Shown: positions 20,181 to 21,641 of the stretch, piece after piece | How the letters are laid out: the number at the start of each line of letters is the position of its first letter | Position numbering within the stretch: position 1 is the stretch's first letter | Origin: Spirochaetota bacterium | GTDB lineage: Bacteria > Spirochaetota > UBA4802 > UBA5550 | Direction: 5' to 3' | Assembly: GCA_963664815.2 (NCBI GenBank) | Contig: CAXXHB010000003.1 | Span: forward strand, 1,248,001 to 1,312,000 | DNA length: 64,000 nt | The notes under the pieces: model-generated | What the model was told of the DNA's origin: nothing | The model's database searches: none | The model's input: only the letters and a program-made list of their open reading frames with translations | Position numbers and translations under genes: made by a program

Positions 20181-20867
20181 ATGAATAAGAAAGGTGTTAT
20201 TCTGTTAAGTGGAGGACTTGATTCTGCGACGGTTGCAGCCATAGCAATAAAAGAGGGATTCTCTCTGTCTGCTCTGACTTTTTATTATTCCCAGAGGCAT
20301 GAAATTGAAATCGTATTTGCAGAGAGATTAGCCGGTTATTTCAAAATAGATAATCATATAAAAATATCAATACCGGCTGAGATTTTCAAATCAGCATTGA
20401 CAAAGGATTCAGAAATTGAAGTACCCAAAAACAGGGATGTCACAAGGAGTGATATACCAGAAACATATGTTCCGGCGAGGAATATCATTTTTTTATCATT
20501 TGCCCTGGCATATGCCGAATCTACCGGTGCAGAAAATATTTTTATTGGAGCAAATGCGATTGATTATAGTGGATATCCTGACTGCCGACCAGAATTTTTC
20601 AGTGCATTCAGAAAAATGGCTAATACCGGTACAAAGTCCGGCGTTGAGGGGAGGGGATTCACAATTCATACTCCATTAATGCATCTTTATAAGCATGAAA
20701 TAATAAAATTGGGAACAGAATTGGGCCTGGATTATTCTTTTACACATAGCTGCTATGATCCTTCAATTGATGGTTCATCATGCGGGGAATGTGACAGCTG
20801 TCATCTGAGAATGAAGGGTTTTGCTGAAGCAGGCGTTCCTGATCCGACTCAATACAGGAAGAAATGA
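20181..20867 (+). CDS. queC: 7-cyano-7-deazaguanine synthase
   Basis: LLSGGLDS, YVPARN, DYSGYPDCRPEF, SCY...CGECDSC. Confidence 0.97.
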   Translation: MNKKGVILLSGGLDSATVAAIAIKEGFSLSALTFYYSQRHEIEIVFAERLAGYFKIDNHIKISIPAEIFKSALTKDSEIEVPKNRDVTRSDIPETYVPARNIIFLSFALAYAESTGAENIFIGANAIDYSGYPDCRPEFFSAFRKMANTGTKSGVEGRGFTIHTPLMHLYKHEIIKLGTELGLDYSFTHSCYDPSIDGSSCGECDSCHLRMKGFAEAGVPDPTQYRKK

Positions 20868-21641
20868 TAAGGTTTTTTCTCTTTTTTCTGGATTTTGTTT
20901 TCCCGTGTAATTGTGTATCCTGCGGTACCCCTGTACCTTATTATATGAATTATTTGTGCAACGAATGTCGTGCATGTATGAATGAGATTAAAAATGGATG
21001 TTCTGTATGCTCTGGAATAGTAGAAGATAATTTCTGTTCAATTTGCGGAGAGAGGATGTTTTATCCGGAAAAGCATATCTCCCTGTTCAGTTATGAAAAA
21101 GTATTAAAAGCTGTAATTCATTCTCTTAAATTTAGGGGTTTAAAGCATATTTACAGGAATTTTGTCCAACTACGGGAGCAGTCTGAAGAGATTTAAGAAA
21201 CGTTTAAAGCATATTTACAGGAATTTTGTCCCGATTATCTGCGGGAGAATTTATGATTTCGGGGAGAAAATAGACATCGTGACTTCTGTTCCCATGAACA
21301 GAAGAAAACTGGTTAAAAGAGGTTATAATCAGTCAGAGTTGATAGCACGGGCTGTCAGCAGAAAAACTGGAATAGAATTTTATGAAATTCTGAAAGAATG
21401 TAAAAACAGGATACAGCAGAGAGATCTTAATTATGATAAGAGATTTATAAATGTTATTGACAGGTATGAAACTGTTAATAATATTAAATTCAGAGGTAAA
21501 GCGGTACTTCTTATAGATGATGTTTTTACAACCGGGGCAACAATTAATGAGTGTTCGAGAATTCTATTGTTAGCCGGTGCTGCTAAAGTATTTTCGATAA
21601 CAATAGTCCGTTCTGACTTAAAAAAGCTTGAAAATCTGTAG
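20864..21641 (+). pseudogene. comF: ComF family protein (double zinc ribbon + PRTase) split by a 64-bp frameshifting insertion
   Basis: ORF 20864-21196 carries the CxxC zinc ribbons. ORF 21162-21641 carries RGYNQS and LLIDDVFTTGAT. Removing 64 bp (one 30-bp repeat plus 34 bp) gives one 237-aa frame. Confidence 0.9.
21138..21231 (+). repeat. Exact 30-bp direct repeat flanking a unique 34-bp spacer
   Basis: GTTTAAAGCATATTTACAGGAATTTTGTCC at 21138-21167 and 21202-21231; spacer AACTACGGGAGCAGTCTGAAGAGATTTAAGAAAC at 21168-21201. Confidence 0.97.

Follow-up and report, generated by a model that had tools for sequence, protein, structure and literature searches.

A 64-bp repeat-spacer-repeat unit in a ComF-family gene of a spirochaete: a probable off-target integration by the resident type I-B CRISPR-Cas system

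Introduction

Off-target integration by the Cas1-Cas2 integrase was reported by Nivala, Shipman and Church (2018), who found that in the type I-E system of E. coli such events can found new arrays. The demonstration comes mainly from E. coli that overproduces Cas1-Cas2; one passage that cites it calls the evidence in two other species circumstantial, and natural cases are placed by that passage in the same, circumstantial class. Off-target acquisition also appears among the origins that have been proposed for isolated arrays (PMC13142298). [quoted passage not shown] 2016, PMC4872114). CRISPR arrays of Streptococcus thermophilus have been described to gain spacers at ectopic positions (PMC7999890, PMC5338259). 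Among the titles, abstract openings and few passages on which our view of the literature is based, we found no report of a gene knocked out in nature when a spacer was integrated.

Here we describe a 64-bp unit that interrupts a ComF-family gene (comF) in a stretch of 64,000 nucleotides, referred to below as the window, from a Spirochaetota bacterium (assembly GCA_963664815.2, contig CAXXHB010000003.1, positions 1,248,001 to 1,312,000), together with two sister units found elsewhere in the same genome. Judged by the cited excerpts, these units resemble the E. coli neo-CRISPR loci in that a chromosomal segment of native-repeat length is duplicated around an insert of spacer size in a genome that carries cas1 and cas2, in that the sites used partly resemble the leader-repeat junction, and in that spacers can be self DNA. 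They differ from the E. coli loci, as these are described there, in that they are natural, with no overexpressed Cas1-Cas2, and in that the resident system belongs to type I-B and includes Cas4; in addition, a protein-coding gene is broken by one of the events, and a single wild genome has retained all three. The duplication of 29-30 bp at a degenerate site is consistent with the ruler described for H. hispanica, whereas the repeat sequence and the motifs given in that paper differ from those found here (PMC4872114). The S. thermophilus events resemble ours in that integration took place away from the leader-proximal repeat; there, according to the cited excerpts, spacers entered true repeats in the interior of a type II-A array, whereas the targets here are non-CRISPR chromosomal sequences.

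Transposable elements provide a further comparison, since they too leave an insert flanked by direct repeats after staggered strand transfer. The target duplications of insertion sequences are about 2-14 bp long and those of casposons about 14-15 bp. Such elements insert as a whole and carry terminal repeats, whereas the comF unit consists of 29-30 bp duplicated around 34 bp with no features of an element.

Results

Geometry of the 64-bp unit

The earlier note on this DNA, made from the window alone, had described a 30-bp repeat, a 34-bp spacer and a second 30-bp repeat inside comF, and this description holds exactly (Table 1). The two 30-nt copies are identical, their starts are 64 bp apart and 34 bp lie between them; chance alone would not be expected to produce an exact 30-bp match at this distance. 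The unit can be parsed as 30 + 34, as read directly, or as 29 + 35, with a fortuitous match at one flanking base. When up to three mismatches were allowed, neither the 30-mer nor the 34-mer had a further occurrence in the 5.2-Mb, three-contig genome, and the repeat pair therefore stands outside any repeat family. The 34-bp insert has no terminal inverted repeats.

The presence of the insert, which the earlier note had proposed to confirm, is borne out by Logan contigs of four sequencing runs from two studies, all of which carry it with 0 differences over the covered region. Runs X1 and X3 belong to study P1, and runs X4 and X5 to study P2, which bears another organism label; the assembly analysed here may itself have come from one of the two studies. 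Recovery from four runs and two studies excludes an artefact of one assembly. The evidence from the runs consists of assembled contigs, in which a minor excised allele would be invisible.

Table 1. Positions of the 64-bp unit and of the gene that it splits, numbered within the window.
Feature	Positions	Strand	Remarks
Duplicated target segment, copy 1, exact 30 nt	21138..21167		direct repeat; single-copy in 6/6 relatives
Spacer-like insert, 34 nt, or 35 nt with a 29-nt duplication	21168..21201		unique in genome
Duplicated target segment, copy 2	21202..21231		exact direct repeat of copy 1
ComF-family gene (zinc-ribbon N-terminus and phosphoribosyltransferase C-terminus), split by the 64-bp unit	20864..21641	+	ORFs, Pfam, NCBIfam
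Truncated N-terminal ORF, 110 aa	20864..21196	+	ORF call
C-terminal ORF, 159 aa, TTG start inside repeat copy 1	21162..21641	+	ORF call, Pfam, NCBIfam

The interrupted gene

The 64 extra base pairs shift the reading frame and so split comF in two, a zinc-ribbon fragment of 110 aa and a phosphoribosyltransferase fragment of 159 aa. The first of these is native up to codon 101, at the end of repeat copy 1, and continues with nine residues encoded by the spacer before it reaches a stop. The second contains the phosphoribosyltransferase domain, and its frame is open across the spacer. When the 64 bp are removed in silico, a gene of 714 nt encoding 237 aa with zero internal stops is obtained, as the earlier note had stated; this read-through protein aligns collinearly, without gaps and at 70.9% identity, with the ortholog of 237 aa from a genome of the same genus (G001).

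Assignment to the ComF family is based on matches of both halves to family models. The Pribosyltran model of Pfam matches the C-terminal half of comF with 26.8 bits, just above the cut-off of 26.3, and the double zinc ribbon model DZR_2 matches the N-terminal half below its cut-off. The C-terminal half matches the NCBIfam comF model TIGR00201 with E 1e-23. The intact G001 ortholog matches the same model over profile positions 1-190 of 190 with E 1.6e-26, at a score (93 bits) that lies below the curated threshold of 233.55. Together these matches suggest that the interrupted gene may encode a ComF-family phosphoribosyltransferase of the ComFC/GntX-like kind. We infer that comF has most likely been inactivated, and the 159-aa fragment may not be translated. 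In the contigs from study P2, comF seemingly has a further disruption after window position 21487, which would fit decay of the gene.

Comparison with relatives

Alignment of comF with its counterparts in close relatives, a comparison that the earlier note had recommended, covered six genomes of the same genus (G001, G003, G004, G005, G006 and G007), which share 75-82% DNA identity with comF. The site is uninterrupted and exactly 64 bp shorter in all six; a seventh genome of the genus (G002, 73% complete) gave no match to comF. The 64-bp unit is lineage-specific. Because the repeat copies are identical, the gene carries no other lesion in the assembly and the site is empty in 6/6 congeners, the insertion event is judged to be recent, in agreement with the age that the earlier note had proposed.

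The resident type I-B system

A single Cas1 match and a single Cas2 match, both above cut-off, were found genome-wide, at C3:1042041-1043240. These genes lie 226 kb upstream of the comF unit and outside the 64-kb window, and for cas1 and cas2 the earlier note was right to describe the window as free of cas genes. They are the last members of an operon at C3:1.033-1.043 Mb that comprises cas6, an IS200-like ORF, cas8b1, cas7, cas5, cas3, cas4, cas1 and cas2, in which Cas1b (TIGR03641) scores 447 bits against a cut-off of 304 and Cas8b1 (TIGR01908) scores 79 bits against a cut-off of 19.4. With Cas8b, Cas7, Cas5, Cas3, Cas6 and a Cas4-Cas1-Cas2 module all present, the operon is assigned by its gene content to type I-B.

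A CRISPR array begins about 145 bp downstream of the operon and is composed of 76 identical 29-nt repeats and a degenerate terminal repeat. It contains 75 spacers, with lengths of 35 nt (10 spacers), 36 nt (34), 37 nt (25), 38 nt (5) and 39 nt (1), and only 57 of the 75 are distinct because blocks of the array have been duplicated. The native period is accordingly 64-68 bp and is exactly 64 bp in 10 of the 75 cases. The period of the comF unit, 64 bp, falls within this range. In the 30 + 34 parse each length is one base outside the native values, and no native spacer (0/75) is 34 nt long; in the 29 + 35 parse the repeat has the native length and the spacer a length seen 10 times in the native array. 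The earlier note had held that a CRISPR origin would be refuted by a lack of cas1 and cas2 or by unlike repeat and spacer lengths. Neither refuting result was obtained, as both genes are present and the array has a 29-nt repeat and 35-39-nt spacers, within one base of the literal 30 + 34 reading.

Two sister units in a repeated intergenic element

The genome was scanned for similar units both by exact matching and by a relaxed search that accepted at least 25/29 matches at a spacing of 58-72 and called for non-tandem flanks. The relaxed scan returned 80 windows, of which 75 correspond to neighbouring repeats within the array and five lie elsewhere. Two of these five are tandem or low-complexity sequence, and the other three are the comF unit and two units at C3:1367701 and C3:3686890. 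A 29-nt sequence common to the units at C3:1367701 and C3:3686890 is present at ten loci. Alignment of the ten loci reveals a repeated intergenic element with flanks conserved on both sides, in which the 29-mer occurs once in 8/10 copies and twice in 2/10 copies. The two doubled copies contain different spacers, of unambiguously 34 nt at C3:1367701, a length absent from the native array, and of 36 nt at C3:3686890.

Both sister duplications are exactly 29 bp long and start at the same base. One of the doubled copies has a 1-nt deletion inside the segment, and its duplication ends one base further on. A common start combined with a fixed length of 29 bp is the pattern that would be expected, by analogy with H. 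hispanica (PMC4872114), from a ruler measured from the first junction. The 36-nt spacer of C3:3686890 is identical (36/36) to C2:374400-374435, a segment inside an ORF of 1053 aa on the 842-kb second contig, which represents a second replicon; the flanks of the two sites are unrelated. A short piece of distant self DNA between duplicated 29-mers has the signature of spacer acquisition and would be hard to explain in other ways.

The possibility that the 29-mer is a true CRISPR repeat derived from elsewhere was considered and rejected. It is absent from seven other genomes of the genus and from 121 other genomes of the order, it has no Rfam CRISPR-DR match, and in more diverged copies of the element this position is taken up by another, longer sequence. 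The 29-mer is treated here as a repeat-like part of the repeated intergenic element. The native 29-nt repeat is likewise not found in the seven other genus genomes.

Similarity of the comF site to the other targets

The similarity measures used here were picked after the sequences had been seen, and the frequencies that follow are to be read in that light. Compared without gaps, the comF segment matches the native repeat at 12/29 positions on the plus strand and at 15/29 on the minus strand; by repeat identity the comF unit lies outside the resident CRISPR array family, and the comF locus has no Rfam CRISPR-DR match. With one 1-nt insertion the minus strand matches at 19/29, a value equalled at about 1,204 of 10.4 million positions (about 1e-4), so that more than 1,000 sites in the genome are as similar to the native repeat and yet unused. 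The native leader-repeat and the intergenic site have 17 positions in common, of which comF keeps 12 on the plus strand, a score as good at 2,075 of 10.4 million positions (P 2e-4), and 11 on the minus strand. When comF is compared directly with the intergenic site over the 29 nt and 3-nt flanks, 22/35 positions agree, which is reached by 84 of 10,403,024 positions with the element's own copies included (P about 8e-6). The stretch that matches GGAATTT in comF differs in the relatives, 0/6 of which have GGAATTT. By these measures the comF site is unusually repeat-like, which is no proof that integration there was inevitable.

Cues to the orientation of the unit conflict, with likeness to the native repeat favouring the minus strand and likeness to the second target favouring the plus strand. 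The test on shared positions is near equal between the strands (12 versus 11 of 17), and the purine content of the spacer is not decisive. The conflict stems from the quasi-symmetry of the site.

Searches for spacer sources

In its own genome the best non-self matches of the comF 34-mer, found with blastn-short, are 13-18 nt long and at chance level, so that no source in adjacent or other genomic DNA was found, template switching from neighbouring sequence being an origin that the earlier note had set against its own reading. The 34-mer has no exact match in the collections viral_contigs, metagenome_contigs and genome_contigs, gives chance-level matches with E >= 1 against phages and plasmids, and does not occur in 63 other genomes of the family with up to three mismatches. 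The 34-nt spacer of the sister unit at C3:1367701 (spacer A, C3:1367730) likewise has no exact match in viral_contigs. No protospacer was thus recovered for either spacer, the large collections having been scanned for exact matches only; a foreign origin of the comF spacer is assumed.

The native spacers are almost matchless as well, and the blank result for the comF spacer is therefore weakly informative. The native array has no match among plasmids and one marginal match among phages, between spacer 56 and the region of the Microviridae capsid gene VP1 (E 3e-3). The flanks of this match disagree with those of the self protospacer on C2, and no PAM was derived from them.

Discussion

Off-target integration and its alternatives

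We consider it very probable that the 64-bp unit arose by ectopic spacer integration catalysed by the cell's own type I-B Cas4-Cas1-Cas2 module and that it represents a one-spacer neo-CRISPR. Cas1-Cas2 loaded with a 34-35-bp prespacer would have engaged the repeat-like site in comF in place of the leader-proximal repeat of the array. Two staggered strand transfers, 29-30 bp apart and on opposite strands of the comF site, would have joined the prespacer to the gene, and repair of the gaps would have duplicated the intervening 29-30 bp to give the repeat-spacer-repeat arrangement. The layout of the unit, the presence of a cas locus, the existence of two sister units and the self origin of one sister spacer are observations; that Cas1-Cas2 catalysed the event and that comF lost its function we infer. 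The main proposal of the earlier note, an ectopic neo-CRISPR integration that knocks out comF, is strengthened by the two sister units, one of which has an exact self-derived spacer. The comF unit would then be a further and rare natural instance of the known off-target phenomenon, from a type I-B system.

The same origin could be combined with a benefit to the cell, the unit being kept either as a reversible off-switch for DNA uptake or as a working one-spacer mini-array that gives rise to a crRNA. Loss of one repeat and the spacer would restore the 237-aa frame exactly, the unit is present in the populations sampled by two studies, and the C-terminal ORF is open across the spacer. We nevertheless judge a useful unit unlikely, as no excised allele was seen in the contigs (which cannot show minor alleles), recognition by Cas6 is doubtful for a pseudo-repeat with 12-15/29 ungapped matches to the native one, and the apparent second disruption in the study P2 runs fits decay of comF and not a switch. 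An origin in which CRISPR proteins took no part, with slippage, template switching or break repair duplicating 30 bp around 34 bp of filler, is in our estimate very unlikely. Break repair can yield short direct duplications with filler DNA, and the lack of a protospacer for the 34-mer would agree with filler; the 34-mer, however, is untemplated in the genome, and a repair event would leave unexplained both the coincidence of the unit size with the native CRISPR period and the existence of two other units in 5.2 Mb that have exact 29-bp duplications and similar sequence, one of them enclosing a 36-bp copy of a distant gene.

An excised mobile element could also have left a footprint, or an integrase or transposase could have duplicated an att site, and the genome does contain IS110- and IS200-like genes and group II introns. 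The duplication of 29-30 bp is, however, far longer than those of insertion sequences and casposons, the 34 bp have neither terminal inverted repeats nor another copy in the genome, and the genome has one Cas1-family gene only. We regard an origin from such an element as highly improbable, and the scar of an excised element, which the earlier note had listed as a second option, finds no support. That the unit was created by assembly or sequencing is scarcely credible. The 30-bp repeat does equal k-1 for assemblers that use k=31, and the inspection was limited to contigs; against this, the sequence is identical in the contigs of all four runs from the two studies, the genome is assembled in three contigs, and the sister units are alike in structure, with genuine sequence from another contig in one of them. 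Off-target integration by Cas1-Cas2 remains the reading that we prefer.

Implications and shared features of the three targets

If off-target integration is correct, this genome provides three clean natural type I-B events, one of which breaks a gene of a DNA-uptake family (the family being assigned by sequence) and one of which has a known spacer source. They would be direct evidence that genes of wild bacteria can be harmed by CRISPR adaptation, and the three units are candidate founders of new arrays. A bolder conjecture, to which we give little credence, is that the type I-B module is naturally promiscuous enough both to mutate its own genome and to found new arrays, that all three units are newborn one-spacer CRISPR loci, and that the comF unit is an off-switch for DNA uptake which recombination between the 30-bp repeats would precisely reverse. 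Were this true, the genome would offer a natural snapshot of the birth of CRISPR arrays and of immunity machinery rewiring a function in horizontal gene transfer.

The three targets also form a natural data set on the sites recognised by a type I-B integrase. Read on the plus strand, all three ectopic sites have the form GG-N29-CC, and they share with the native repeat GG at positions 19-20 and ATT at positions 22-24, which we propose, from an alignment of only these four sites, as candidate anchor motifs in this genome.

Repeat-spacer-repeat units outside the CRISPR array

Two sister units of the comF repeat-spacer-repeat unit were found elsewhere in the genome, and the same intergenic sequence, duplicated over 29 bp, is present in both (see table). 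The 36-nt spacer of one unit is identical to a stretch of C2, the second replicon, and judged by this exact match is self-derived; its target, a 1053-aa ORF on C2, is still present in the genome. Directly upstream of one sister unit lie overlapping genes for a reverse transcriptase (566 aa) and a family-A DNA-polymerase-like protein (522 aa), which may constitute a defence-type reverse-transcriptase module, with a 140-141-bp tandem repeat positioned farther upstream (L020).

Coordinates of features in the genome under study (G000, GCA_963664815.2; L, loci with local coordinates; C, contigs)
Feature	Locus	Contig	Setting
Sister unit, 34-nt spacer	L020:7702-7794	C3:1367701-1367792	Outside CRISPR array
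Sister unit, 36-nt spacer	L019:6891-6984	C3:3686890-3686983	Outside CRISPR array
Source match of 36-nt spacer		C2:374400-374435	
Reverse-transcriptase/polymerase-like pair	L020:4234-7495	C3:1364233-1367494	
Islands with ~430-bp element	L019-L022	C3 ~1.367-1.395, 1.964-1.968, 2.534-2.566, 3.187-3.210, 3.583-3.588, 3.686-3.696 Mb	
Native CRISPR array	L024	C3:1043386-1048330	
Spacer 56	L024:3704-3741		Native array
IS200-like ORF	L006:6514-7038		Between cas6 and cas8b1
56-bp tandem repeat arrays		C1:5207-6785 and 92567-93028	Near both contig ends

With diverged copies included, a conserved ~430-bp intergenic element is present at least 27 times on C3, setting apart short cassettes whose genes include ParE toxins. 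IS110-like genes, reverse-transcriptase genes and three group II intron matches (Rfam) were observed near these islands, whose layout recalls integron-like cassette arrays with group II intron invasion.

The native CRISPR array and its spacers

All 76 repeats of the native type I-B array are identical, which suggests that the array is young or recently active. Internal blocks are duplicated: spacers 24-38 repeat spacers 9-23, and there are additional copies of spacers 22-23 and of spacer 39, leaving 57 distinct spacers of 75. Over nearly its full length, spacer 56 matches a Microviridae genome within its VP1 capsid region (MG945756.1:1752-1791) at ~90% identity (E 3e-3), a hint that the resident system has encountered microviruses; the other native spacers gave no match in the phage and plasmid databases. 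An IS200-like (Y1 transposase) ORF, scoring weakly at 23.6 bits, at the cut-off, lies within the type I-B operon.

A possible second disruption of comF in study P2

In X4 and X5, two sequencing runs of study P2 seen as assembled Logan contigs, a high-depth contig (~145x vs 21x) fuses comF through window position 21487 to unrelated sequence (region 21439-21500), and another X4 contig runs on past the junction as the window does. These contigs suggest that part of the P2 population has a multi-copy element inserted into comF; such an insertion would be the gene's second hit.

Contig C1 (93.5 kb, GC 40.8%) carries 56-bp repeat arrays, possibly the terminal repeats of a replicon of plasmid or phage-like type.
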